Shown here: piece after piece, positions 6,808 to 20,462 of the stretch
Position numbering within the stretch: position 1 is the stretch's first letter
How the letters are laid out: each line of letters starts with the position of its first letter
Origin: Candidatus Omnitrophota bacterium
GTDB lineage: Bacteria; Omnitrophota; Omnitrophia; Omnitrophales; Aquincolibacteriaceae
Length of the DNA: 25,637 nucleotides
NCBI GenBank assembly: GCA_043803685.1
Contig: JAZDJU010000008.1
Location: forward strand, 1 to 25,637
Direction of reading: 5' to 3'
Made by a program: the position numbers and the translations under genes
The notes under the pieces: model-generated
Database searches by the model: none
The model's input: only the letters and a program-made list of their open reading frames with translations
What the model was told of the DNA's origin: nothing

Positions 6808-8418
6808 ATGAATCTTCAAAGACCGAACGCGAATGACGCCACGCGTACCGCCAACCGCTCCAAAGACATTGCTCCGCAAAGTGGTATTTGTACCCGGTGT
6901 GTGGATGGATGCCGGGGCAATTGCGAAGTTTTCAAAGCTACGTTTCGTTCACGGGAACTCATTTATCCGGGACCTTTCGGAGATGTGACGGCTGGCGGCG
7001 ACAAGGACTATCCGATCGATTATTCCCATCTCAATATCCACGGGTACGCGCTCGGCTGTAAGGGGCTGCCCAAGGGGACGGCAGGGAATTCCGATACCGC
7101 GCGGTTTCCGGACGTCAATACCGAGACCGAATATGGTTGGGATCGCAAGGTCAAGATGGACGTCCCTGTTTTTACGGGCGCATTGGGCTCGACAGAGATC
7201 GCGCGCAAGAACTGGGAACACTTCGCGGTGGGCGCTGCTATTTCCGGCATGACGATCGTGTGCGGTGAGAACGTCTGCGGCATCGATCCGAAGCTGGTCC
7301 TGAACAAGGACAAAAAGGTCAAGGAAGCTCCGGATATGGACCGCCGGATCGAAACTTACAAGCGCTATTATCGCGGCAAAGGCGAGATCCTCATCCAGAT
7401 GAACGTGGAAGATACGCGCCTGGGTGTCGCGGAATATATCCTCAACGAGCACAAGATCGAAACGATCGAATTGAAGTGGGGGCAGGGCGCAAAGTGTATT
7501 GGCGGCGAGATCAAGGTGAACACGCTGGAACGCGCGCTGGAACTCCAGAGGCGCGGTTATATCGTGACGCCCGATCCATCGGATCCGGTGAACCAGGCCG
7601 CTTTCAAGGACGGCGCCATCAAGGAATTCGAGCGGCACAGTCGTCTCGGATTCATTGGGGAAGAAGAGTTCTACAAGGAGGTCGCGAGACTTCGCAAGCT
7701 CGGGTTTAAACGCATTACGCTCAAAACCGGCGCGTACGGTTTGCGGGAGTTGGCGATGGCGCTCAAGTGGGGTTCCAAGGCCAAGATCGATCTTCTCACG
7801 ATCGACGGGGCTCCGGGCGGCACGGGGATGAGTCCGTGGCGCATGATGGAAGAGTGGGGGATGCCCTCGATCTATCTCCATTCCGCGGCCTATGAGTTCG
7901 CGGAGATCCTTCGCAAGAAGGGTGAGCGTGTTCCCGATCTTGCGTTCGCGGGCGGTTTTTCAACGGAAGATCATATCTTCAAGTGCTTGTCCCTGGGAGC
8001 GCCGTACGTGAAAGCGGTCTGTATGGGACGCGCGCTCATGATCCCCGGGATGGTCGGAAAGAATATCGGCCATTGGATCGAAGGGAACGATCTTCCGAAG
8101 ACCGTCAGCGATTTCGGGACCACACCGGAGCAGATATTCGTTTGCTACGAAGAGGTCATGAAGCTTGTCGGGAAGAACGAGATCAAAAAGATCCCGCTCG
8201 GAGCGATCGGGATCTATAGTTACGCGCAGAAACTCAAAGTGGGTCTCCAGCAGCTGATGGCCGGGGCGCGGTGTTTTGATGTGCCTTCGATCAGCCGTAA
8301 GGAGTTGATGTCCCTGACCGATGAATGCGCGAAGGTCACTGGGATCCCGTACCTCATGGAGTCTTATCGCAGTGAGGCGCTAGCGGTTCTGAAGGGCGGT
8401 AAAGCCGGTAAGAAGTAA
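6808..8418 (+). CDS. Stand-alone FMN-binding glutamate synthase family protein
   Basis: IELKWGQGAKCIGGE, ITLKTG, TIDGAPGGTG, AFAGG, KCLSLGA and CMGRA match the GltS FMN barrel. N-terminal CxxCxxxCxxxC. SD GGGGAGG at 6796-6802. Confidence 0.88.
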   Translation: MNLQRPNANDATRTANRSKDIAPQSGICTRCVDGCRGNCEVFKATFRSRELIYPGPFGDVTAGGDKDYPIDYSHLNIHGYALGCKGLPKGTAGNSDTARFPDVNTETEYGWDRKVKMDVPVFTGALGSTEIARKNWEHFAVGAAISGMTIVCGENVCGIDPKLVLNKDKKVKEAPDMDRRIETYKRYYRGKGEILIQMNVEDTRLGVAEYILNEHKIETIELKWGQGAKCIGGEIKVNTLERALELQRRGYIVTPDPSDPVNQAAFKDGAIKEFERHSRLGFIGEEEFYKEVARLRKLGFKRITLKTGAYGLRELAMALKWGSKAKIDLLTIDGAPGGTGMSPWRMMEEWGMPSIYLHSAAYEFAEILRKKGERVPDLAFAGGFSTEDHIFKCLSLGAPYVKAVCMGRALMIPGMVGKNIGHWIEGNDLPKTVSDFGTTPEQIFVCYEEVMKLVGKNEIKKIPLGAIGIYSYAQKLKVGLQQLMAGARCFDVPSISRKELMSLTDECAKVTGIPYLMESYRSEALAVLKGGKAGKK

Positions 8419-8431
8419 TCCGTCTTTTATG

Positions 8432-8472
8432 GAGAGGCGACCCCGGGCTCGAAAGGGGTCGCCTCTCTTTTT
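8432..8472 (+). terminator. Intrinsic terminator after the GltS-like gene
   Basis: Perfect 13-bp stem GAGAGGCGACCCC (8432-8444) / GGGGTCGCCTCTC (8455-8467), followed by TTTTT. Confidence 0.88.
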
Positions 8473-8473
8473 C

Positions 8474-8502
8474 TTGACAAATGATACAATGATGGTATCA
8501 TT
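8474..8502 (+). promoter_or_regulatory. Sigma70 promoter of the Rrf2 operon with an overlapping 23-bp palindromic operator
   Basis: TTGACA at 8474-8479, 16-bp spacer, extended -10 TGg-TATCAT at 8493-8501. Inverted repeat AATGATAC-N7-GTATCATT at 8480-8502. Confidence 0.8.
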
Positions 8503-8507
8503 CACGC

Positions 8508-8969
8508 ATGAAACTTATCACGCGCAACACCGATTATGCGATGCGGGCTCTTTGCTATATCGCTCAGCAGGGCAGCCCCTCGGTCTCCGCGGCCGAGATG
8601 GTGGAGCGGCTCAGGATCCCGCGCCCGTTCCTGCGGAAGATCCTGCAGGTCTTAAGCGGCGAAGGCATCCTGAGGTCGACCAAGGGACAGGGAGGCGGTT
8701 TCTCTTTAGCTTATGCGAAGGAGAAAGTTCTGCTGACGGATCTGATACGGATCTTCCAGAACACGATCCAGTTAAACGAATGTGTTTTTAAGAAAAAGGT
8801 ATGTCCGAACCGGAGTACCTGTATGTTGAAAAAAGAGATCGATTCGATCGAGAAAGATGTGCTTGAGCGGCTTCACAAGATCTCGATCGCTTCATTAGTG
8901 GTTGGCGGGAGCGGTTCACGCCCGCGCGAGAAAGGAAAACGTCATGGCCATTCTACAAGCGGGCGCTGA
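8508..8969 (+). CDS. Rrf2 family transcriptional regulator, NsrR-like, predicted Fe-S binding
   Basis: TDYAMRAL, LRKILQVL, STKGQGGGFSL (winged helix) and a C-terminal C-X6-C-X5-C (8781-8822). Confidence 0.93.
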   Translation: MKLITRNTDYAMRALCYIAQQGSPSVSAAEMVERLRIPRPFLRKILQVLSGEGILRSTKGQGGGFSLAYAKEKVLLTDLIRIFQNTIQLNECVFKKKVCPNRSTCMLKKEIDSIEKDVLERLHKISIASLVVGGSGSRPREKGKRHGHSTSGR

Positions 8970-10722
8970 AACCCGGTTCAAAGGACTGCCGCTGAGTCCC
9001 GGAGTTTCCGTGGCGCGCGTGTGTCTTTTCAATGAAAAACGTCACATGAGCCTTCCCGTCGCGAATGTGACGCCCAAGGAAGTCCAGAACGAAGGCGATC
9101 GATTTCGCAGTGCCCTCGCGCTTGTGAAGGAAAAGCTCGCGCTCCTTATCAAGGAAGTAGAGGAACGCGTCGGGAAAGCGGAGTCCGAGATCTTTGTGGC
9201 CCAAAAAATGATCCTCGAAGACCCCCTGATGATCCAGAGGGTGACGGACCATATTCGCAGCAAGAACTTCAATGCTGAGAAAGCCGTCATTAGTTCGCTC
9301 GATTTTTTCGAAGAACAGCTTTCCGCAATGGATAACGCCTATATCCGTGAACGGGCCTCCGACATCGGCGAAGTGAAACGCCGGCTACTCGACGCGCTCG
9401 CCAACATGAGTCCGTCGTTTCAATGTGAAAGCGATTCCTTCTGCCAGAAGGGGAAGAACCGGATCGTCATCGCCCAGGAACTCACGCCGAGCCTTACGAT
9501 GGAGCTCAACACGGATTTTATCCGCGGATTCGTGACCGATCGCGGTGGCGTGGCGTCGCATGCGGCTATTTTGGCCCGCGCGCTCCGGATCCCGGCCGTG
9601 AGTGGCATCCCGGGGATCCATGACATGATCTTCTGCGGCACCGAGGTGCTCGTGAACGGCGATACCGGCGAAGTCGTGATCTGGCCAAGCAAGAAAACTC
9701 TCGAGGAATATCCTGACCTTCAACAGAAGGGCGCCGAAGAAATTCCTGCGGTGGAACCTGTCGCGGGGCTTAAGGTGTTCGCCAATCTGAATCTCGCGAA
9801 AAAAGTGAAGGAGGCTGTCGATCAAAAGGCGGAAGGCATCGGACTTTACCGGACGGAGTTCGAATTCTTTGCGGCAGGGAAGATCCTCCGCGAGGCGGAG
9901 CAATACGATCTTTATCTTGAAGTTCTGAAAGCCATGAAAGACAAACCGGTCTATTTCAGGATGCTGGACCTGGGCGCCGACAAGACCGCGGATTTTCTCA
10001 AGCTTCCCAAAGACCAGAATCCCGCGCTGGGTTTTCGGGGGAGCCGTCTTCTTCTGGGACATCCCGAGCTTTTCAGAAATCAGGCGAGAGCGCTTGCCCG
10101 CGCGTCCAAACACGGTCGCGTTCATGTGATGTATCCCATGGTGATCGACATCGAGCAATTCCGGAAGCTCAAAAAAGCCTTCGAAGAGGCGACCGGAGAT
10201 ATCTCCCAGGGCGAGATCAAGCACGGCTTGATGTTCGAAGTGCCTTCCGCCTGTCTCGATGCCGAGGAGATCCTTCGGGAGGCGGATTTTGGCAGCATTG
10301 GCACGAACGATCTGATCCAGTATCTCTTTGCCGTGGACCGCGACAATGAACTTGTCGCCTATGACCACCATCCGGACCGCAAGATCTTCTGGCAGCTGAT
10401 CCGCCACGTCGCGCATGCGGCCAGGAAACATCACAAACCTCTTTCAGTCTGTGGCGAACTGGCATCGAATCCCGGTCACGCAAGGCAGTTGCTTGCGGCA
10501 GGGATCCGCTCGGTCAGCGTGTCCGCCAAGATGATCCCGGGGCTGAGGATCGCGATCAAGAACAAGCCCAAGCTATCGAAAAAAGGACGTAGCCCTTTTT
10601 TCGCGAGAAACGCCGAACGGGCAACGCACCACGCAAAAGCTGAGAAAACGTTGCGCGTTGCGCGTCGTACGGTGAGTAAGAAGAAAATCAATTCCAGAAC
10701 AAGGCATCGAAACAGTCAATAA
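8944..10722 (+). CDS. ptsI: Phosphoenolpyruvate-protein phosphotransferase (PTS Enzyme I family)
   Basis: YIRERASDI, GGVASHAAILAR (phospho-His at 9559-9561), GIGLYRTEF, RMLDLGADK, NPALGFRG, MFEVPSA, SIGTNDLIQY, SVCGELA. Start moved to ATG 8944 (SD AAGGA at 8932-8936). Overlaps the Rrf2 gene by 26 nt. Confidence 0.92.
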   Translation: MAILQAGAETRFKGLPLSPGVSVARVCLFNEKRHMSLPVANVTPKEVQNEGDRFRSALALVKEKLALLIKEVEERVGKAESEIFVAQKMILEDPLMIQRVTDHIRSKNFNAEKAVISSLDFFEEQLSAMDNAYIRERASDIGEVKRRLLDALANMSPSFQCESDSFCQKGKNRIVIAQELTPSLTMELNTDFIRGFVTDRGGVASHAAILARALRIPAVSGIPGIHDMIFCGTEVLVNGDTGEVVIWPSKKTLEEYPDLQQKGAEEIPAVEPVAGLKVFANLNLAKKVKEAVDQKAEGIGLYRTEFEFFAAGKILREAEQYDLYLEVLKAMKDKPVYFRMLDLGADKTADFLKLPKDQNPALGFRGSRLLLGHPELFRNQARALARASKHGRVHVMYPMVIDIEQFRKLKKAFEEATGDISQGEIKHGLMFEVPSACLDAEEILREADFGSIGTNDLIQYLFAVDRDNELVAYDHHPDRKIFWQLIRHVAHAARKHHKPLSVCGELASNPGHARQLLAAGIRSVSVSAKMIPGLRIAIKNKPKLSKKGRSPFFARNAERATHHAKAEKTLRVARRTVSKKKINSRTRHRNSQ

Positions 10723-10735
10723 CGGGAGGTTTTTT

Positions 10736-12406
10736 ATGAGCATGTTTTGTTTTCAGTGTGAGCAGACGGCGAAAGGCAAAGGGTGCGATGTTCAAGGGGT
10801 TTGCGGGAAATCGCCGGAGGTGGCGACGTTGCAGGATCTTTTGATCCACGCCGCGAAAGGGATCGCGATCTACGCGGACATGGCACGGGAGATTGGGGTG
10901 AAAGACAAGCAGACGGATCTCTTTGTGATCGAGGCGCTTTTCGCGACGGTCACAAACGTGGATTTTGATGTCGAGCGATTGAAGGAAACTCTCGGGCGGG
11001 CTTACGCGGCCAAGGAAAAGATCAAAAAGCTGTTCCTGGAGGCTTACAAAAACAAGAACGGACGGGAATTTACCGGAGACCTTCCGACCGCCGCTTTCTG
11101 GAAACCCGCGGAAAATATTGCCGGGCTTTTCGAACAGGGCGCCAAGGTCGGCATTCTCTCCGACAAGACGTTAAATGAGGACATCCGCAGTCTCCGTGAG
11201 CTCCTTCTTTACGGGCTCAAGGGAATGGCGGCTTACGCGGATCACGCGCATGTGCTCGGGCGTGAGGATGAGGAAGTGGACGCGTTTTTCCATAAAGGGC
11301 TTCGCGCGATCACCAACGGCAGTCTGACGGTGAATGATCTCGTGGGACTCAATATGCAATTCGGGATGGTCAATCTCAAGTGTCTCGAGATCCTCGATAA
11401 AGCGCACACGGATCATTTCGGGCATCCGGTGCCGACGGGTGTGTCGCTCGGGGCGAAAAAAGGTCCCGCGATCCTCGTGTCGGGCCACGATCTTCTGGAT
11501 CTGGAGCAGCTCCTTCAGCAGACCGAAGGCAAAGGGGTGAATATCTACACGCATGGCGAAATGTTGCCGGCGCACGGATATCCGGGGCTCAAAAAGTACA
11601 AGCATCTCGTCGCCAATTACGGCGGCGCGTGGCAGGACCAGGCCAAGGAATTTGACGCTTTTCCGGGGGCGATCCTGATGACCACGAATTGCATCCAGCA
11701 ACCGCGCGAAAGTTACAAGGGCCGGATCTTCACGACGGGTCTTGTGGCGTGGCCGGGAGTGCAACATATCAACCCTGTGAATGGGAAAAAGGATTTTTCG
11801 GTCGTGATCAAGAAGGCGATCGAGGCGGGCGGTTTCCCGCAGGACATTCCCGCGAAGAACATTGTCGTGGGATTTGGTCACAACGCGGTGCTCGGAGTCG
11901 CTGACAAGGTTGTCGGCGCCGTGAAAGCGGGACTGATCAAGCATTTCTTCCTGGTGGGCGGCTGCGACGGCGCGAAACCCGGACGGAATTACTACACGGA
12001 TTTCGCTCAACAAGCGCCGAAGGACACCGTGATCCTGACCCTGGCGTGCGGCAAATACCGGTTCAACAAACTCGAGTTCGGGGACATTGGCGGCATTCCG
12101 AGGCTCCTCGATATGGGGCAGTGCAACGACGCCTATTCCGCGATCCAGGTGGCCGTGGCGCTTGCGAAGGCTTTCGGCTGCGGCGTGAACGATCTGCCGC
12201 TTTCGATGATCCTTTCCTGGTACGAGCAAAAGGCGGTCTGTATTCTGCTCACGCTTTTGTCGCTTGGGATCCAGAATATTCGCATCGGGCCTTCGCTCCC
12301 GGCGTTCGTGAGCCCCAACGTGCTCAAGGTGCTTGTCGAGAAATTCAATATCAAGCCCGTGACTACGGCCCAGGCCGACCTCGACGCGATTCTGGTAAAA
12401 AAGTAA
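10736..12406 (+). CDS. hcp: Hybrid cluster protein (hydroxylamine/NO reductase)
   Basis: MFCFQCEQT...GC...GVCGK (cubane ligands), SGHDL, YTHGEMLPAH, TTNC, GGCDG, LACGK, GQCND, SWYEQKA. SD GGGAGG at 10724-10729. Confidence 0.98.
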   Translation: MSMFCFQCEQTAKGKGCDVQGVCGKSPEVATLQDLLIHAAKGIAIYADMAREIGVKDKQTDLFVIEALFATVTNVDFDVERLKETLGRAYAAKEKIKKLFLEAYKNKNGREFTGDLPTAAFWKPAENIAGLFEQGAKVGILSDKTLNEDIRSLRELLLYGLKGMAAYADHAHVLGREDEEVDAFFHKGLRAITNGSLTVNDLVGLNMQFGMVNLKCLEILDKAHTDHFGHPVPTGVSLGAKKGPAILVSGHDLLDLEQLLQQTEGKGVNIYTHGEMLPAHGYPGLKKYKHLVANYGGAWQDQAKEFDAFPGAILMTTNCIQQPRESYKGRIFTTGLVAWPGVQHINPVNGKKDFSVVIKKAIEAGGFPQDIPAKNIVVGFGHNAVLGVADKVVGAVKAGLIKHFFLVGGCDGAKPGRNYYTDFAQQAPKDTVILTLACGKYRFNKLEFGDIGGIPRLLDMGQCNDAYSAIQVAVALAKAFGCGVNDLPLSMILSWYEQKAVCILLTLLSLGIQNIRIGPSLPAFVSPNVLKVLVEKFNIKPVTTAQADLDAILVKK

Positions 12407-12418
12407 AAGTCTGAAAAA

Positions 12419-12450
12419 AGGGGGTCAGGCACCGTGGTGCCTGACCCCCT
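12419..12450. terminator. Palindrome after hcp (terminator or REP-like element)
   Basis: AGGGGGTCAGGCACC-GT-GGTGCCTGACCCCCT: perfect 15-bp arms, preceded by an A-run and followed by CTTGCTT. Confidence 0.7.
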
Positions 12451-12455
12451 CTTGC

Positions 12456-12527
12456 TTCCCCCTTTGTAAAGGGGGAATGAGGGGGATTTTCAAATCTCCC
12501 CTTGCCCCTCTTTTAAAAAGAGGGGGA
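12456..12527. repeat. Inverted doublet of CCCCCTTTnnAAAGGGGG...AGGGGGATTT REP-like units
   Basis: TTCCCCCTTT-GT-AAAGGGGGAA (12456-12477), GGGGGATTT-TC-AAATCTCCC (12481-12500), CCCCTCTTTT-A-AAAAGAGGGG (12505-12525). The second unit is an imperfect reverse complement of the first. Confidence 0.75.
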
Positions 12528-12592
12528 TTACGGTATAAGCACTTGTGATTAGCTACTGCATGAAGTGTGATAGGCCCGGTATAGGGGAGTCC

Positions 12593-12621
12593 TTGATATG
12601 AAGGGCTTTCCATGGTGTAAT
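12593..12621 (+). promoter_or_regulatory. Putative internal sigma70 promoter for radical SAM-nadA-ilvD-ftn
   Basis: TTGATA at 12593-12598, 17-bp spacer, TGg-TGTAAT at 12613-12621. Confidence 0.4.
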
Positions 12622-12687
12622 ACGTGCCCGTCGAGCGGAATCCCCCGGAGAATGCCGCGACGGTTTTCTCTCAGATTGAGGCTTCAT

Positions 12688-13485
12688 ATGGAACAACCTA
12701 AGTATAAATACATTTACGGGCCCGTCTCTTCCTGGAGGCTGGGCCGTTCTCTTGGGATCGACCCCATTTCCTCGTTCCAGAAAACTTGTACGTTTGATTG
12801 TATGTATTGTCAGGCGGGGAAGACGGAATTTTTTTCCGACAGGCGCGAAGTTTTTGTTCCAACCGAAGCCCTGGTGCATGAATTGCGTTCCATGCCCGAC
12901 GTTCCCGTCGATTACATCACCTTCGCGGGGAACGGCGAACCGACTTTGGCAGCGAATCTCGGGGAAATGATCCGCGCGGTCAAAATGGTCCGTAATGAGA
13001 AAGTCGCGGTGATCACGAATTCTTCTTTGATCGATCGCAAGGACGTGGTCGAGGACCTGCTTCTGGCCGATCTCGTGGAGGCAAAGCTCGACGCGTCTTC
13101 TGCCGAGTCTTTCAATATAGTGAACCGGCCCATGTCGGAGATCCGCACGGAAGATATGGTGGCTGGGCTGAAGGCGTTCCGGGCGGTCTACCGCGGACAC
13201 CTGGTGCTTCAGGTGATGTTCGTGGCGAGCAACAAGCTGAGCGCTCCGGCGATGGCGAAACTTGCGCATGAGATCGGACCCAACGAGATCGAGATCAACA
13301 CACCGCTTCGGGCCTGTGCCGTGAAGCCGCTCTCGATCGAGGATATGGAAAGGATCACCGCGGTTTTTCGCGGGATCTGCGGCGACCAGATCAAAGTGCG
13401 GAGCGTGTACGAAGTTCAACGTGAAAAAAGCAAGCCATTCTGCGAGCCCTCGACCGAGCGTCGGCGCGTAAAAGAGGTTTTTTAA
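12688..13485 (+). CDS. Radical SAM protein of unknown function (COG0731-like, YGPVxSxRLGxSLG family)
   Basis: YIYGPVSSWRLGRSLGID, CTFDCMYC (CxxxCxxC at 12787-12810), TFAGNGEPTL, ITNSSL, KLDA. Start moved to ATG 12688 (GAGG at 12678-12681). Confidence 0.9.
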   Translation: MEQPKYKYIYGPVSSWRLGRSLGIDPISSFQKTCTFDCMYCQAGKTEFFSDRREVFVPTEALVHELRSMPDVPVDYITFAGNGEPTLAANLGEMIRAVKMVRNEKVAVITNSSLIDRKDVVEDLLLADLVEAKLDASSAESFNIVNRPMSEIRTEDMVAGLKAFRAVYRGHLVLQVMFVASNKLSAPAMAKLAHEIGPNEIEINTPLRACAVKPLSIEDMERITAVFRGICGDQIKVRSVYEVQREKSKPFCEPSTERRRVKEVF

Positions 13486-14496
13486 ATGAAAAATATTTCA
13501 AACGACGCAACCACGCAGGAACTTCTGGGACAGATCGCCCGTCTGAAAAAAGAGCGGGAGGCTGTGATCCTGGCGCATAATTATCAGGCGCCGGAGATCC
13601 AGGACCTCGCCGATTTTACCGGTGATTCGCTCGAGCTGAGCCGTATTGCGGCCAAGACGCCGGCGGAGGTGATCGTGTTCTGCGGCGTGAAATTCATGGC
13701 CGAAACCGCTTTTATCCTTTCGCCTAAAAAGACGGTCCTTCTTCCGGTGATGGAAGCCGGCTGTACGCTGGCCGATTACGCGACCGCCGAACAAGTCCGT
13801 GAAATGAAGAAGAAACATCCGGACGCGATCGTCGTGACCTACGTCAATAGCTCCGCCGAAGTAAAGGCGGAGACTGATGTTTGTTGCACCTCCGCAAACG
13901 CCGTCGAGATCGTTCGATCGATCAACAAAAACCGGCCGATCCTTTTTGTTCCGGATTACAATCTGGGGCACTATGCGGCCAAGATGACGGGGCGCGAGTT
14001 GATCCTTTGGGACGGTTGCTGTCCGACGCATGCGCTTCTGTCGACCTTCGCGGTCGCGAAGGCGAAGGATAAGTGGCCGAAGGCGCAGGTGATCATGCAT
14101 CCTGAATGCAAGCCCGCGACCCTGGAACTTGCCGATTTTGTGGGAAGCACTTCCGGGATGCTCAAGTACGTGAAGTCGCAGCCGGCCGGAACTTCTTTTG
14201 TCGTCGGGACCGAGGTCGGGTTGCTTCACCGGATGCAGAAAGAGAATCCGGATAAGATCTTTCATGTGGCTTCGGAATATTTGATCTGCCCCATGATGAA
14301 AATGATCACCTTGAAGGACGTCAAAGAGTCGCTTGAAAAAATGAAATATGTTGTGACTGTGGAAGAGGATGTTCGCGCGCGCGCCCAGGCGGCGGTCGAC
14401 GCGATGCTTCGCTACACGGGCGCGAGTCAGGAACCGGTGAAAGCACCGGCAGAAACGGAATTTTCCATAGGAACAGAAGAGGGAGGAGCGGTATGA
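13486..14496 (+). CDS. nadA: Quinolinate synthase A
   Basis: [59 protein letters not shown]; three [4Fe-4S] Cys present. Confidence 0.97.
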
Positions 14497-16265
14497 GAAA
14501 AGCAGTGAATCCGGGGATCGCGGCGATCCAGAAGCACGGAAGCCGGGTGGTGGGTGAGGGCATGCACATGTTGCCGGCAGCGGGACTCATGGTGGCCGCG
14601 GGCGTTTTGGGGAACGTGACTGACCGGAAAAAGAAATTCGTGACCGTCATTAATTCTTATACGACGCACATCCCCGGACATGTTCATTTGAATATCCTGG
14701 GCGAAAAGCTCGTGGCCGCGCTCAAGGCCAAGGGTTACAACGTCTGGTACGCCAATATCGGCGCGGCGATCTGCGACGGCATTGCGATGGGACACTTCGG
14801 GATGAAATATTCCTTGCCCTCTCGCGAGTTGATCACCGACCAGATCGAAAGCATTGTGGGGGCACATCCCTGCGATGGCTGGATCGGGATCGGGAACTGC
14901 GACAAGATCGTCCCCGGGATGCTGAACGCCATGGTGCGTCTGAACATTCCGTCGGTCTACGTGAGCGGCGGGCCGATGCTGGCCGGCGCGAAGAAGACAG
15001 ACCTCATCACGATCTTTGAAGGCGTCGGAAGCGAAGCGGCGGGAAAAATGTCACCCGCCAAGCTGGAAGATCTCGCCAACACCGCGTGCCGCACTTGCGG
15101 CAGCTGCGCCGGCATGTTCACGGCCAATTCCATGAATTGCCTCGCGGAAGCGATCGGTCTTGCTCAGCCGGGGAATGGAACGATCCCCGCGGCGGTGTGG
15201 ACGGATGGAAGCAAAACTTCGTGGGCGGTGAACCCTGAGCGTATCAAGCTCGTGGAACAAGCGGCGGATACTTTGGAGAACGCGCTTCTCAATAACGTTC
15301 GGCCGCTCGATATCGTGACCAAAAAGTCGATCGATAACGCTTTTATCCTGGATCTCGCGATGGGAGGTTCGACCAACACGATCCTTCACACGTTGGCGCT
15401 GGCTTGCGAAGCGGGCATTACTTATCCGATCAAGCGACTGAATGAACTTGCGAAACTGACGCCCACGGTTTGTAAGGTATCGCCGTCGCGTCCGGAGATC
15501 CATCTCGAGGACGTTCACGTGAAAGGCGGGATCGCGGCTATTCTGAAGGCGGTTTCTCAAGGGAGCCGGGCGCCGCTCGACCTGGATCTTGAGACATGCG
15601 TCGGAAGTTTGCGGAACGTCGTGGAAAAAGCGCCGGCCCCGGACGGGGATGTGATCCGTTCCTGCGCGAACGCTTTCTCGAAAGAAGGCGGGCTCGCGAT
15701 CCTGTACGGGAATATCGCGCCGGAAGGTTCGGTCGTGAAGACGGCGGGTGTGGATAAGGAAATGATGCAGTTCACGGGGCGCGCGAAGTGCTACGACTCG
15801 CAGGAGAGCGCGCTTGAGGCTATCCTTAAAGGCAAGGTTGTGGACGGCGACGTGGTGGTGATCCGCTATGAAGGACCCCGGGGCGGTCCCGGAATGCAGG
15901 AAATGCTTTCACCGACTTCGGCTTTGAAAGGCCGGGGGATAAGAGCGGCGCTTGTCACCGATGGACGTTTTTCCGGCGGGACGCGCGGGCTTTGTATCGG
16001 CCACGTTTCTCCGGAAGCTGCCGCGGGAGGACCGATCGCGATCCTCAAGAACGGCGATACGATCACGATCGATGCCGCGAAAAGAACGATGAATGTCGAG
16101 TTGTCGGCAGGGGAGATCAAGAAGCGGCTCGCCAAGCGCAAGCCTTTTACGCCCAAGGTGACCGGCGGGTGGTTGGGCCGGTATGCCCTTCACGTGTTGA
16201 GCGCTCACACGGGCGCCGTAATGGATAATGTGATTTCAGTTTCGAAAAACAAAAAAAGGAGATAG
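14493..16265 (+). CDS. ilvD: Dihydroxy-acid dehydratase
   Basis: [76 protein letters not shown]. Overlaps nadA at ATGA. Confidence 0.96.
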
Positions 16266-16268
16266 ACC

Positions 16269-16757
16269 ATGATCAGCGAAAAAATGAACAAGGCGATCAA
16301 CGAACAGATCAATAAGGAGCTTTTTTCCGCTTACATTTACACCGGGATGGCGGCCTACGCGGCGTCGCTCAGTCTGAACGGCATCGCGAACTGGTTCCAG
16401 ATCCAGACGAAGGAAGAGATCGAACATGCCGTGAAGTTCATGAAGTACATCAACGAACAGGGCGGGACGGTCACCCTTAAGGCGATCGCTGCGCCGGACC
16501 AGAAGTTCACGTCGGTGGCGGGTCTCTTTGAAGAAACCCTGAAACATGAAAAGATCATCACCTCTTCGATCAAAGGGCTAGTCGAACTCGCCAAAAAAGA
16601 AGGCGACGCGGCGACCGAGATCTTCCTCCAGTGGTATGTGACCGAACAGGTGGAAGAAGAAGCGAATCCGACCGAGATCCTGCAGAAGCTCGCGATTGGC
16701 GGCAAGACCGGAAGCTCGCTCCTGATCCTTGACGGGATCCTGGGGCAACGGAAGTAA
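16269..16757 (+). CDS. ftnA: Non-heme ferritin
   Basis: QINKELFSAYIY, EEIEHA, HEKIIT, FLQWYVTEQVEEE (ferroxidase centre residues). Confidence 0.94.
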   Translation: MISEKMNKAINEQINKELFSAYIYTGMAAYAASLSLNGIANWFQIQTKEEIEHAVKFMKYINEQGGTVTLKAIAAPDQKFTSVAGLFEETLKHEKIITSSIKGLVELAKKEGDAATEIFLQWYVTEQVEEEANPTEILQKLAIGGKTGSSLLILDGILGQRK

Positions 16758-16765
16758 CCTTTTTT

Positions 16766-16828
16766 GTCATCCCCGCAAGTTTTAAGCGGGGATCCAGACC
16801 AGGGTAGGCTTTAGCGGGAATGAATGAC
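16766..16828. repeat. GTCATCCCCGC...GCGGGGATCCAG REP-like palindrome with a degenerate inverted partner
   Basis: GTC-ATCCCCGC-AAGTTTTAA-GCGGGGAT-CCAG at 16766-16797, followed by the remnant half GCTTTAGCGGGAATGA(ATGAC). Confidence 0.65.
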
Positions 16829-16843
16829 GGAGGAAAGACGAAT

Positions 16844-18037
16844 ATGAAAGCGATCCCGATAGCGGAGAATATCTGGTGGGTGGGGGCGATCGATTGGAAT
16901 GCCCATCATTTTCACGGGCAGACCTTTACCACGAAGCGTGGAACGACGTACAACGCTTACCTGATCGTGGACGAGAAGATCACGCTCATCGATACGGTCT
17001 ACGGCCCTTTTACGGAGGAGATGCTTCAGAGGATCCGGAGCGTGGTGCCGCCTGAGAAGATCGACACCATCATCGCCAACCACATCGAACCCGATCATTC
17101 GCAGGCGCTCCCCGCCCTCGTCAAACTTTGTCCCAAGGCCAAAGTTTACGGGCGCGCGCGCGCCGGTCAGGGACTCGAGCGCTATTACGGGCAGAAGTTC
17201 AATTTTCAGGCTGTGAAGACCGGGGACCGGTTGAGCCTTGGGAAACGGACGCTTCAGTTCATCGAGATCCCGATGATCCACTGGCCGGACAGCATGATGA
17301 GCTATCTCATCGAAGACCAGACGCTTTTCTCCAACGATGCCTTTGGCCAGCATTACGCCACAAGCGAGCGTTTTGACGACGAAGTGCCGCAGGAGACCTT
17401 GATGGAGGAAGCTGGGAAATATTACGCCGGCATTCTGTGGCCGTTCAGTCATCTGATCCTCCAACGTCTCGCCGAGATCGAGAAAATGGGTATTCCGATC
17501 AAGACGATCCTGACCTCGCATGGCCTTAGCTGGCGCAAGAACCCGGGCAAGATCATCGAGGCCTATAAACGTTGGGGCGCGAACACCACGATGCCTAAGA
17601 TCGTCATTGCCTATGAGACGATGTGGGGTTCCACCGCGAAAATGGCGCAGAAGATCGCCGACGGAATCCAGGACGCGGGCGTGAAGTTCGAGCTTTATGA
17701 TATGGCTCAGTCGGACCGCACGGAAGTGATCCACGACATGCTCGACGCGAAGGCCTTCATCGTGGGTTCTTCGAACCACGACAGCGGCATTCTGCCGAAC
17801 ATGACGTCTTTTATGGAATTCCTGAAAGGCCTGCATCCGAAGAATCGCATCGGCTGCGCCTTTGGCTCCTACGGCTGGTCTGGGGTCGCGATCCAGTCGC
17901 TCCAGAACACGCTCGCAGCCGCGGGAGTGGAGATCGTCCAACCTCTGCTTTCGGTGATCTACGCGCCGGATGAGGCGCAGCTCACCGCCTGCTACGAACT
18001 TGGCAAGAAAATGGCGCAACTTGTTCTCAATAAATAA
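16844..18037 (+). CDS. fprA: Class A flavodiiron protein (NO/O2 reductase)
   Basis: GTTYNAYLI, NHIEPDHS, HWPDSM, FSNDAFGQH and SHG (diiron ligands); flavodoxin domain YETMWGST and FGSYGWSG. Start moved to ATG 16844 (GGAGG at 16829-16833). Confidence 0.95.
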   Translation: MKAIPIAENIWWVGAIDWNAHHFHGQTFTTKRGTTYNAYLIVDEKITLIDTVYGPFTEEMLQRIRSVVPPEKIDTIIANHIEPDHSQALPALVKLCPKAKVYGRARAGQGLERYYGQKFNFQAVKTGDRLSLGKRTLQFIEIPMIHWPDSMMSYLIEDQTLFSNDAFGQHYATSERFDDEVPQETLMEEAGKYYAGILWPFSHLILQRLAEIEKMGIPIKTILTSHGLSWRKNPGKIIEAYKRWGANTTMPKIVIAYETMWGSTAKMAQKIADGIQDAGVKFELYDMAQSDRTEVIHDMLDAKAFIVGSSNHDSGILPNMTSFMEFLKGLHPKNRIGCAFGSYGWSGVAIQSLQNTLAAAGVEIVQPLLSVIYAPDEAQLTACYELGKKMAQLVLNK

Positions 18038-18115
18038 TTTATTGGAAACAAGTGCAGCACTAAGCGGTCTATTGAATTTTTATCGGTAGCTCAGTGCGGT
18101 GCTCGTTCTCGTGCG

Positions 18116-18150
18116 AAGGGGACAGACAGTCACTTAATGTCTGTCCCCTT
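18116..18150. repeat. Perfect 13-bp inverted repeat (GGGGACAG...CTGTCCCC type; REP-like or terminator)
   Basis: AAGGGGACAGACA-GTCACTTAA-TGTCTGTCCCCTT, just upstream of the nitroreductase SD AAGGAGGT. Confidence 0.65.
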
Positions 18151-18169
18151 TAAAACAAGGAGGTAACCC

Positions 18170-18664
18170 ATGGAAACCTTTGACGCCCTTGCGAAACGCG
18201 CCAGCGTTCGCGATTATATGAACCAGCCGGTCTCCAAAGACATGCTGGAGAAGCTGATTGACGCCGGACGGCGCGCGCCGAGTGCCCGCGCTGTGGAACC
18301 CTGGGAATTTGTGGCGATCACCGAGCGTGCCACACTCGACAAACTCGCCTCGATCATCAGCACCGGAGTGTTCCTGAAACAAGCGACGGCCTGTGTGGTG
18401 GTTTTCTGCCAGGACACGAAGTACTACCTCGAGGACGGGTCGGCGGCGACGGAGAATATCCTGCTCGCGGCGACGGATCTGGGACTTGGCACTTGCTGGA
18501 TCGCGGGTGACAAGAAAGAATATTGTGAAGAGGTCTCAAAACTTCTCGGCGCGCCAACGCACCTGAAGCTCATCAGCCTGATCTCTGTGGGCTTTGCTGT
18601 GCGAGAGCCCAAGCAGCGTAAACGCCGCACCCTTTCCGAAGTTCTTCACTGGGAAAAGATCTGA
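18170..18664 (+). CDS. Nitroreductase family flavoprotein
   Basis: KRASVRDY, APSARAVEPWEF, ENILLAATDLGLGTCWI. Strong SD AAGGAGGT. Confidence 0.93.
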   Translation: METFDALAKRASVRDYMNQPVSKDMLEKLIDAGRRAPSARAVEPWEFVAITERATLDKLASIISTGVFLKQATACVVVFCQDTKYYLEDGSAATENILLAATDLGLGTCWIAGDKKEYCEEVSKLLGAPTHLKLISLISVGFAVREPKQRKRRTLSEVLHWEKI

Positions 18665-18736
18665 CATCGTAAAATTTAGTGTAGGTAGGTTGTAAATGGT
18701 TTTATAGATTTGTCGAAAATGAAATCAGGGGGATCT

Positions 18737-19267
18737 ATGAGTGGACATCATTGTTTGTACTATGATTCTTTAAAGGATCTGTGCGGTGTTGTGGCCAGCT
18801 TTTTAAGGGATGGGATCCGTAAGAACATGCTTTGTTTATGGATTCTTCCTGGAGGACTGGACGCTGAAGCCGCGAAGGTGGCTTTGAGAGAGAGTCTGGG
18901 GGATCTGGATCAATATGTCGGATCGGGTCAATTGGAGATCAGGGAGTTCCACGATTGGTACACTCGCTCAGGAGCATTCAACCCGGAAGAGACACTGAAG
19001 GCTTGTGGCCAAAAAGAGAGCGAGGCTTTGGCTCGGGGTTTTAGCGGTCTTTGCGTGATCGGCGATGGCTCCTGGCTTTTGAGAGAAGATAGGGAAAAGC
19101 TCCTGACCTACGAAAGCGTTGCTGCAGAAGTCATTTCCCAAAGCAAGATCACCGCCTTATGCACTTACGCGACCGAAAAACTCAGTGAAGAAGAGCGGCG
19201 GATCATGAGCCAGCATCACGACGTGAGTATTTCCCATCGTCACGGCACACTGGCCATTTCCAACTGA
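18737..19267 (+). CDS. Stand-alone MEDS (DcmR-like) sensory domain protein
   Basis: GHHCLYYDS, FLRDGI...CLWI, GQLEI...WY...G.F, ALARGFSGLCVIGDGSW, LLTYES, ALCTY, QHHD match the MEDS pattern. Start at ATG 18737 after AGGGGG. Confidence 0.82.
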   Translation: MSGHHCLYYDSLKDLCGVVASFLRDGIRKNMLCLWILPGGLDAEAAKVALRESLGDLDQYVGSGQLEIREFHDWYTRSGAFNPEETLKACGQKESEALARGFSGLCVIGDGSWLLREDREKLLTYESVAAEVISQSKITALCTYATEKLSEEERRIMSQHHDVSISHRHGTLAISN

Positions 19268-19385
19268 ACAAGGCGAGTCGGTGATCTGGAGATGCTGACC
19301 CTTTTAAACAGATCCTTCCTCCGAAGAAACGATCGATTCGTCAAAGGACAAAGACACTGCGATTTCAAAAACGGGGGATGTGGCG

Positions 19386-20462
19386 ATGCTGAGTAAGACG
19401 CTGACGATCATGTTTATCGATCTGCAAGGCTACACTTCTCTGACATCCCAGAATACCCGGGAAGAACACCAGCTTTTCATCACCGAGATCCATGCCTTCG
19501 TGGAGAAGCACGCTCAGAGTAAGCGCGGGCGTCTTGTCAAAACCATGGGGGACGGGTTCTTGATTACTTTCGAATCGCCCACGGACGCGATCAATTGCGG
19601 CCTGGCGATCCAGGAAGAGATCGGCCGGCGGAACATGAATGTCCTCGACGAAAGCCATTGGTTGCGGCTTCGGGTCGGGATCAGCACAGGCGAGGTGAGT
19701 GTTGATGAAAATAACGATGTGTACGGGGACGCGGTCAATATCGCGGCGAGGATCGAAAAACGCTGTGACCCCAACGAGGTGTTCATTTCGGAATCCACTT
19801 ACCTGGCGATGAACCGTTCGGAAGTCAACGCGCTGGACCTGGGAGCGTTAAAATTCAAGAATGTGACCGAAGACGTCAGGGTCTTCAAGATCCTGAAAGA
19901 GAAAAAGATCCCTGGAGAGGTTCCGGGATCCCGTTCGAGCCTTTCTGTGAAAGGGTGGATAATCGCCGGCGGGGTCGCGGTCCTTCTGATCGTGGTTGCC
20001 GGCTTGTTTTTCGCCGGCAGAGCGGGAAAAACTTCTGTCAAACCATCGTCGCCCGGAGATAAGCGGGTCTCGATGAATCCGATGGACTCCTGCCGGGAAA
20101 ATGTCGAGCGCTATTGCGGGGACGTGCAGCCCGGAGAAGGGCGCATCATCCGGTGCCTGAAGGAACACTCCAGCAGTTTGGATCCAGCCTGTGCCAGCAC
20201 TTTATCTCAGGGAGAAAACCGCGCGGGAGTGGGAGCTCGTTCACCGTCTCAATCGTCAGGCGATGCACCGCAACCGTTTTTAGGCCAGGGAGAAAACGCC
20301 CGTGAAAAGGGTAAGGATTTCCTGAGCTCCTGCGATGAAGAGGTCCGGAATTATTGTGGATCAGTACAACACGGCGGCGGGCGGATCGTCCAGTGCCTCA
20401 AAGAAAATGTCAGCCAGTTAAGCCGTACCTGCCAGGAAGCCCTTCCAGAGGACATGAAATAA
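19386..20462 (+). CDS. Class III adenylate/guanylate cyclase with one TM helix and two C-terminal Cys-rich (GLG1-like) repeats
   Basis: MFIDLQGYT, VKTMGDGF, RVGISTGEV, DVYGDAVNIAARIE; TM segment WIIAGGVAVLLIVVAGLFFA; two C-X7-C-X12-C-X11-C repeats. Start is ATG 19386 (SD GGGGGA at 19373-19378) or GTG 19380. Confidence 0.88.
   Translation: MLSKTLTIMFIDLQGYTSLTSQNTREEHQLFITEIHAFVEKHAQSKRGRLVKTMGDGFLITFESPTDAINCGLAIQEEIGRRNMNVLDESHWLRLRVGISTGEVSVDENNDVYGDAVNIAARIEKRCDPNEVFISESTYLAMNRSEVNALDLGALKFKNVTEDVRVFKILKEKKIPGEVPGSRSSLSVKGWIIAGGVAVLLIVVAGLFFAGRAGKTSVKPSSPGDKRVSMNPMDSCRENVERYCGDVQPGEGRIIRCLKEHSSSLDPACASTLSQGENRAGVGARSPSQSSGDAPQPFLGQGENAREKGKDFLSSCDEEVRNYCGSVQHGGGRIVQCLKENVSQLSRTCQEALPEDMK

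Follow-up and report, generated by a model that had tools for sequence, protein, structure and literature searches.

In this study, we show that a 25,637-nucleotide stretch of a Candidatus Omnitrophota genome (contig JAZDJU010000008.1; referred to here as the window, and its genome, 91% complete, as G000) carries nadA and ilvD, encoding quinolinate synthase and dihydroxy-acid dehydratase, within a co-oriented block of nine genes that opens with an Rrf2-family regulator under a predicted 23-bp operator and includes the hybrid cluster protein Hcp, a ferritin and the flavodiiron protein FprA. What is observed comprises the genes and their junctions, the single copies of nadA and ilvD, the conservation of the operator and of an internal promoter-like element, P2, and the linkage of nadA-ilvD to ftn-fprA. 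In the reading that we prefer, and to which we give an even chance, the block is expressed as nested transcripts, in which P2, predicted to be constitutive, would give a basal RNA running from the radical SAM gene through nadA, ilvD, ftn and fprA to the nitroreductase gene (unit 2), to which read-through from the Rrf2-repressed promoter at the head of the block, P1, would be added. The layout in window coordinates is as follows.

8432..8467, + strand: GC-rich hairpin and then a T run, putatively functioning as terminator (likely) of the upstream FMN glutamate-synthase-family gene
8474..8501, + strand: P1, sigma70-like promoter, TTGACA-16-TATCAT with extended -10, 11/12 match, kept in relatives
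8480..8502, no strand: predicted operator for the adjacent Rrf2, 23-bp palindrome AATGATAC-N7-GTATCATT, overlapping P1
8508..8969, + strand: rrf2, Rrf2-family regulator (PF02082)
8944..10722, + strand: ptsI, second PTS Enzyme I (TIGR01417)
10736..12406, + strand: hcp, hybrid cluster protein Hcp (TIGR01703)
12416..12529, no strand: three hairpins 3' of hcp, dispersed repeats, with a weak U tail on the + strand
12593..12621, + strand: P2, promoter-like element, TTGATA-17-TGTAAT with extended -10, without an Rrf2 operator
12638..12670, + strand: degenerate leader hairpin and T run after P2, in fuller form in most relatives
12688..13485, + strand: radical SAM protein (Pfam; CxxxCxxC at 34/38/41)
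13486..14496, + strand: nadA, quinolinate synthase NadA, sole copy (TIGR00550)
14493..16265, + strand: ilvD, dihydroxy-acid dehydratase IlvD, sole copy (TIGR00110)
16269..16757, + strand: ftn, non-heme ferritin (Pfam)
16844..18037, + strand: fprA, two-domain flavodiiron protein FprA (Pfam), alternative in-frame ATG at 16820
18170..18664, + strand: nitroreductase-family flavoprotein (Pfam)

Judged by homology, Rrf2 would bind the operator in an Asp/3Cys [4Fe-4S] form, repress the leaderless P1 and release the operator on nitric oxide (NO), with O2 as a near-equal alternative signal; once its cluster is damaged, P1 would add partial read-through RNA into unit 2. On the same grounds, Hcp and FprA would reduce NO, FprA also O2, and the ferritin would store the iron released. 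Synteny suggests that the ancestor was an operator-rrf2-hcp...ftn-fprA operon into which a radical SAM-(nadA)-ilvD segment, with its own promoter, was inserted a single time. The read-through, and the selective value of resupplying NadA and IlvD, are the least certain parts. Broader, and somewhat short of even in our estimation, is the proposal that this lineage placed its sole NadA, together with its [4Fe-4S] IlvD, under an Rrf2 that senses Fe-S damage, in an operon with basal-plus-boost promoters. Damage to the sensor's own cluster would then jointly trigger detoxification, iron capture and resynthesis of the two biosynthetic enzymes most at risk, and nadA would have come under this repressor a second time, independently, in another Omnitrophota lineage.

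The nine co-oriented genes that a sequence-only reading of this DNA had listed are all present with the families it gave, and their junctions are as it described: the radical SAM gene and nadA abut with a gap of 0, nadA and ilvD overlap by 4 nt (ATGA), and ilvD and ftn are 3 nt apart. Given these tight gaps, nadA and ilvD likely share one transcript with ftn and fprA. Curated cut-offs are passed by NadA (TIGR00550, 368 bits vs 263), IlvD (TIGR00110, 639 vs 618), Hcp (TIGR01703, 755 vs 361) and Enzyme I (TIGR01417, 418 vs 342); Rrf2 passes its superfamily model only, and the ferritin, FprA, nitroreductase and radical SAM protein were named through Pfam. By tblastn, G000 holds a single nadA, ilvD, hcp, ftn, fprA and radical SAM gene, and second paralogs of rrf2, Enzyme I and the nitroreductase. 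In the genus set of 20 genomes, each congener with a match has one nadA and one ilvD; G018 (77% complete) gave no nadA match and was not scored. The ilvD of G008 (locus L047) lies in two pieces in the assembly, and there two open reading frames stand between fprA and the nitroreductase gene. Second copies of nadA and ilvD, which had been raised as a possibility, were thus not found in G000, and because of this the 'replace' part of the proposed detoxify/sequester/replace module can mean only resupply of the same enzyme; the Rrf2-led detoxify and sequester core stands.

Quinolinate synthases carry a labile cluster; the window's NadA is predicted to be a [4Fe-4S] enzyme, and its three cluster Cys, C93, C179 and C268, align with 5KTM. 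In IlvD, a PGH motif stands opposite the PCN of 6NTE and 6OVT, and C136 and C205 are kept. Gly replaces the first Cys in [4Fe-4S] dihydroxy-acid dehydratases, which are the labile type (PMC9543379), and the E. coli IlvD is cited as being inactivated by NO (PMC3963858). With Gly at the first-ligand position, the window's IlvD is predicted to be of the [4Fe-4S] type, as the sequence-only reading had it. That reading also placed both genes away from their usual partners, which holds in part. We did not find nadB in G000 or in five congeners that are 94-96% complete (0/6), and a NadX-like aspartate dehydrogenase occurs in 5/5 genomes (E about 1e-51, below the curated cut-off); nadC is solitary, flanked by valS and uvrB, both identified by eye. 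Three other genomes (G096, G067, G041) have nadA immediately before nadX in a panC locus, and the matching G000 locus lacks nadA. The gene has left a pathway partner, and that partner is nadX, not nadB. The ilvC-leuA genes of G000 are on C79; in all other loci read from the same taxonomic order (eight, and that of G069), ilvD likewise stands away from ilv genes, so that this separation is no peculiarity of the block.

The best solved match of the Rrf2 protein is NsrR (5N07, E 1e-8), in which D8, C93, C99 and C105, which we take to be the cluster ligands, align with D9, C92, C99 and C105 of the window's protein; in 5N08, in the same alignment, the three Cys are replaced by Ala. The Asp and three Cys are kept in the 12 relatives compared. 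The protein scores 52.6 bits on the NsrR model NF008240, which does not reach the cut-off of 182, and it is far below the cut-offs for IscR and CymR. Over the rrf2 promoter lies a feature that the sequence-only reading had missed, the 23-bp palindrome at 8480-8502, which we predict to be the operator of the adjacent Rrf2. It overlaps P1 in 14/14 loci with an rrf2 start, and a matrix built from these loci gives one strong site in G000 (33.5 bits; next best 13.3) and no further site above 7 bits in 22 clade loci. The rrf2 start codon follows the -10 box by 6 nt, so the mRNA is predicted to be leaderless. Palindromic insertions between operator and rrf2 have shifted the rrf2 start codon in G016, G010 and G065 (L035, L036, L190).

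The suspected internal promoter after hcp is borne out by a promoter-like element, P2, at 12593-12621. Of 27 loci examined, one (G007) was dropped at a contig edge, and P2 precedes the radical SAM gene in 25 of the 26 that could be scored, with none in G132; in most loci the search fixed the spacer at 17 nt, and in two the match was one base off. Its -10 box is non-canonical in most loci, and three g42 genomes have a canonical TATAAT at the same place; a genome-wide tally of extended -10 variants gave sparse counts by which to judge the non-canonical TGTAAT. No Rrf2 operator lies alongside P2 in the clade loci. A single Rrf2-controlled operon with no internal promoter was rejected on the 25/26 loci, and two transcription units are likely, in line with the two or more transcripts that had been suggested. 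The palindromes noted after hcp are real hairpins, and they turn out to be dispersed repeats: genome-wide, the first arm has 9 matches over both strands, each of the other two elements recurs in 4 further copies (<=4 mismatches), and the sequence is not conserved in relatives, which rules them out as specific regulators.

The arrangement itself is well conserved, as had been asked of it. The 29 clade loci, drawn from six genera in a single family, are all colinear with the window, as are 9/9 metagenome contigs, and Candidatus Omnitrophota loci carry NadA and IlvD 77-91% identical to the window's. Adjoining nadA and ilvD are found in 25/26 spanning loci, the exception being G030, which has no nadA there. 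The ilvD-(ftn)-fprA genes adjoin in 24/24 loci, with ftn present in 15 of these and gaps mostly too small for a promoter, and the nitroreductase gene is 3' of fprA in all 22 loci that reach that far. In other lineages, ftn and fprA stand 3' of the same operator (G057, G045 and many of the 80 annotated operator loci described below). Since ftn and fprA are operator-linked elsewhere and the clade has no second operator, any continued Rrf2 control of them must run through nadA-ilvD.

Several observations weigh against the nested transcripts, or reduce what conservation can say for them. The flanks, csp-typA-ppi downstream and GAF-ANTAR-gdhA upstream, are about as conserved as the block, so gene order alone proves little. 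In a FastTree tree (31 rows, with loci of <80% coverage or with a stop excluded), the IlvDs of the block group together in a single clade with support 0.96, so the arrangement counts as about one event, probably inherited vertically. G104 (91% complete) keeps unit 2 with neither the operator nor an ortholog of the block Rrf2, and G013 (97%) keeps nadA-ilvD-fprA-nitroreductase likewise; in G030, where the block has lost its nadA, an unrelated copy next to mnmA is used. In most relatives, P2 is followed by a hairpin and T run, terminator-like in many, degenerate in G000 and deleted in G016 and G017, which could limit both transcripts. In hand counts outside the clade, no ilvD lay within 20 kb of an operator (0/40 genomes that had both coordinates listed) and no nadA lay within 10 kb of one (0/62; of 69 genomes, one without nadA and six without listed operator coordinates were dropped). 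G065 (96%) bears on the other side: it has no hcp match, and its operator, the only site in the genome, and a 3-Cys Rrf2 directly precede P2-radical SAM-nadA-ilvD-ftn-fprA. In a dN/dS comparison of its rrf2, the synonymous sites are saturated. The natural deletions therefore cut both ways: unit 2 is independent of Rrf2 in some genomes, and Rrf2 can persist with unit 2 alone. The Rrf2-led grouping of the sequence-only reading survives in the tight linkage of nadA-ilvD to ftn/fprA, and is weakened by an operator at the head only and by the persistence of the unit without Rrf2 in G013 and G104.

These facts leave room for two independent neighbours, a possibility that we regard as doubtful yet serious. 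Rrf2 would then rule rrf2-ptsI-hcp only, and the genes from radical SAM to nitroreductase would be a constitutive housekeeping unit frozen in place from one insertion. The lone operator at the head, P2 in 25/26 loci, the single origin, the equally conserved flanks and unit 2 standing alone in G104 and G013 all suit it. So do the hairpins before P2: among the 23 loci that show both P2 and a gene upstream of it, 17 have a hairpin of varied sequence, with a 4-T tail in G011 only and the tail unscorable in four. The remaining 6 of the 23 have no hairpin there, G065 keeps Rrf2 and operator with unit 2 alone downstream, and ftn/fprA are operator-linked across the phylum, all of which count against two separate neighbours. 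For the nested transcripts, we further count a nadA at another Rrf2 operator (L082), the 2-oxoacid:ferredoxin oxidoreductase, another Fe-S enzyme, in 6/80 operator loci, and the labile, NO-targeted nature of IlvD.

It is improbable, in our view, that unit 2 is grouped by iron or Fe-S supply with another factor acting at P2, for instance at the leader hairpin or at a partly conserved GGAATCC...GGATTCC inverted repeat that flanks the -35 box. The GGAATC element 5' of the P2 -35 box is strongly conserved, and nadA recurs beside iron or Fe-S genes without Rrf2 in other Omnitrophota, as thiC-nadA-ispG in G042, G021 and G022 (Pfam-tested in one), as feoB-nadA-CDF-ferritin-like in G025, and after a class-V aminotransferase (NifS-like) in G045. 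This recurrence fits grouping by cofactor in general, without demonstrating stress control. The right half of the repeat, however, is missing in several genomes, the g42 genomes have a plain TATAAT promoter with no repeat, and we found no candidate regulator. At L028, L027 and L030, in genomes with no operator, thiC-nadA-ispG(-radical SAM) places Fe-S enzymes of separate pathways in one run. Least of all do we credit a discrete stress island with stress-dedicated nadA and ilvD beside housekeeping copies, since its fitting gene content and the hemerythrin optional in six genomes (G014, G011, G009, G030, G099, G127) are set against a single nadA and ilvD in G000 and in the congeners with a match, syntenic flanks and no compositional boundary. 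The block has a GC content of 0.53-0.59 vs 0.49-0.575 elsewhere in the window, so the term 'island' does not hold, and a horizontally acquired island with spare copies is largely refuted by the lack of second copies and of a GC or synteny boundary.

The operator reaches well beyond the clade. A strict pattern occurs in 96/301 phylum genomes (reversed control 0/301) and in at least 117 contigs of a species collection, including a few other phyla. In 80 annotated operator loci (in-house gene caller; many clipped by contig ends), the usual genes are rrf2, a 4Fe-4S ferredoxin-like gene, hcp, superoxide reductase, rubredoxin, a FAD/NAD reductase, fprA, glutaredoxin and thioredoxin reductase, and ferritin, rubrerythrin, peroxiredoxin, nifU/nifS and sufCB are optional. 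This content points to O2 or reactive oxygen species as much as to NO. In the window's clade, neither rubredoxin (PF00301) nor superoxide reductase was matched (0/5 genomes each), and this together with Hcp and an FprA nearest to 1YCF leans toward NO; by homology, O2 would be a near-equal alternative. One among 77 non-clade operator loci, L082 (Ca. Aceula meridiana), reads rrf2-fdx-nadA-nifS-nifU and is one independent case of nadA at an Rrf2 operator. In 18/28 genomes of family f27, nadA shares a contig with the operator, 13-40 kb downstream of it; we set this aside as background synteny, with housekeeping genes (birA, csp, mnmA) between in the regions read. Among 20 stretches read in the 11 genomes that carry 2-3 operators, none has an operator before nadA or ilvD. 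The second operator sites in G067 and G266 (L259, L266) precede a similar open reading frame of about 50 aa, which may correspond to a C-terminal piece of anaerobic ribonucleotide reductase.

With regard to the IlvD type, the operator occurs in 0/67 genomes with the PCN ([2Fe-2S]-type) enzyme, 29 of them confirmed by motif and 38 assigned by E-value class; the intermediate E-value class had PGH in 7/7 sampled genomes. About half of the PGH-type genomes also lack the operator, and type switches with operator inside families f1, f9, f36 and f46, where kin are not independent. We read this pattern as an anaerobe-versus-aerobe marker and not as proof of operon function; as such, the lack of the operator in all 67 PCN-type genomes offers a simple, predicted indicator of how Omnitrophota live with respect to oxygen.

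Of the other block proteins, Hcp has an N-terminal four-Cys motif (C5, C8, C17, C23). Enzyme I has its three domains and retains the catalytic His206/Cys503, with a housekeeping copy on C79 alongside HPr; it is optional in the block (15 full, 1 fragment and 5 absent among 21 loci). The block copy has extra conserved cysteines (Cys27, 161, 167, 231, 437), none of them in the housekeeping copy, and a metal or redox site is possible. FprA combines metallo-beta-lactamase and flavodoxin domains with diiron motifs; its best solved relative is 1YCF, labelled nitric oxide reductase, and it misses the flavorubredoxin cut-offs. The nitroreductase gene is always 3' of fprA in this clade without rubredoxin matches, and its product may be the electron donor of FprA. 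The radical SAM protein is widespread in the phylum, where its Atlas names are automatic and generic; a solved-structure search gave no relative, and assignment as a wyosine synthase was rejected, the score being far below that model's cut-off. An Rfam scan of the window gave zero matches.

Around the block, the content of the slot 5' of rrf2 (window 6808-8418; L034, L045) varies: most relatives have gdhA there, others an nfnAB-like pair, and G000 and one metagenome contig the FMN glutamate-synthase-family gene. Between the nitroreductase gene and csp, at 18710-20462, the window has a MEDS-domain gene and an adenylate/guanylate cyclase gene with Cys-rich repeats, and this site varies among relatives. 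C49 of G000 seems to continue the window's last gene, and a second Rrf2 precedes suf-like genes a few kb on (C49 51149-55263).

If the read-through holds, the block would be an example from nature of a gene order set by the fragility of cofactors and not by pathway, in which Fe-S damage is answered by resupplying essential enzymes and not by an isozyme swap; if it fails, the block would be a defence operon of the usual sort into which housekeeping genes were inserted. The operator, for its part, gives work on this Rrf2 subfamily, so far uncharacterised, a precise target.

In its core, the block belongs to an established type of O2/NO-defence operon of anaerobes. In anaerobes, O2-defence clusters such as the PerR regulon of Clostridium acetobutylicum hold a flavodiiron protein, rubredoxin, superoxide reductase and rubrerythrin, and the phylum-wide operator operon holds exactly such content, whereas the window's clade carries nitroreductase, Enzyme I, radical SAM, nadA and ilvD in place of rubredoxin and superoxide reductase. 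In the E. coli SoxRS response, labile dehydratases are replaced by the resistant isozymes fumC and acnA. The idea of a pathway kept running under Fe-S damage is alike, but the block has no resistant isozyme or second copy, and the only possible effect would be a larger supply of an enzyme that is itself labile. The NsrR regulon shares the Rrf2 fold, the Asp and three Cys at ligand positions, a palindromic operator over the promoter and, presumably, control of hcp. The NsrR operator, gATGyAT-N5-ATrCATc, has 11 nt between ATG and CAT, in contrast to 15 nt in the block operator, which does not match that consensus (PMC1274295); the block regulator is below the NsrR cut-off, and its regulon is the anaerobe set against O2 and reactive oxygen species, with nadA and ilvD added here. 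The HcpR/HcpR2 hcp-frdX regulons of Desulfovibrio, Clostridia and Bacteroides likewise feature Hcp, often with a ferredoxin-like or hemerythrin gene, and are induced by nitrosative stress (PMC1274295, PMC5701242), but the block regulator is an Rrf2 and not a Crp/Fnr protein. In G027, G029 and G013, divergent regulator-sized genes, Crp/Fnr-like by eye, precede hcp. A literature search that covered few subscription journals and no supplements returned no paper on this arrangement. What is new is a lineage-limited variant of the known operon, in which six genera of one family carry radical SAM-nadA-ilvD between hcp and ftn/fprA, behind a second promoter-like element that has no operator.

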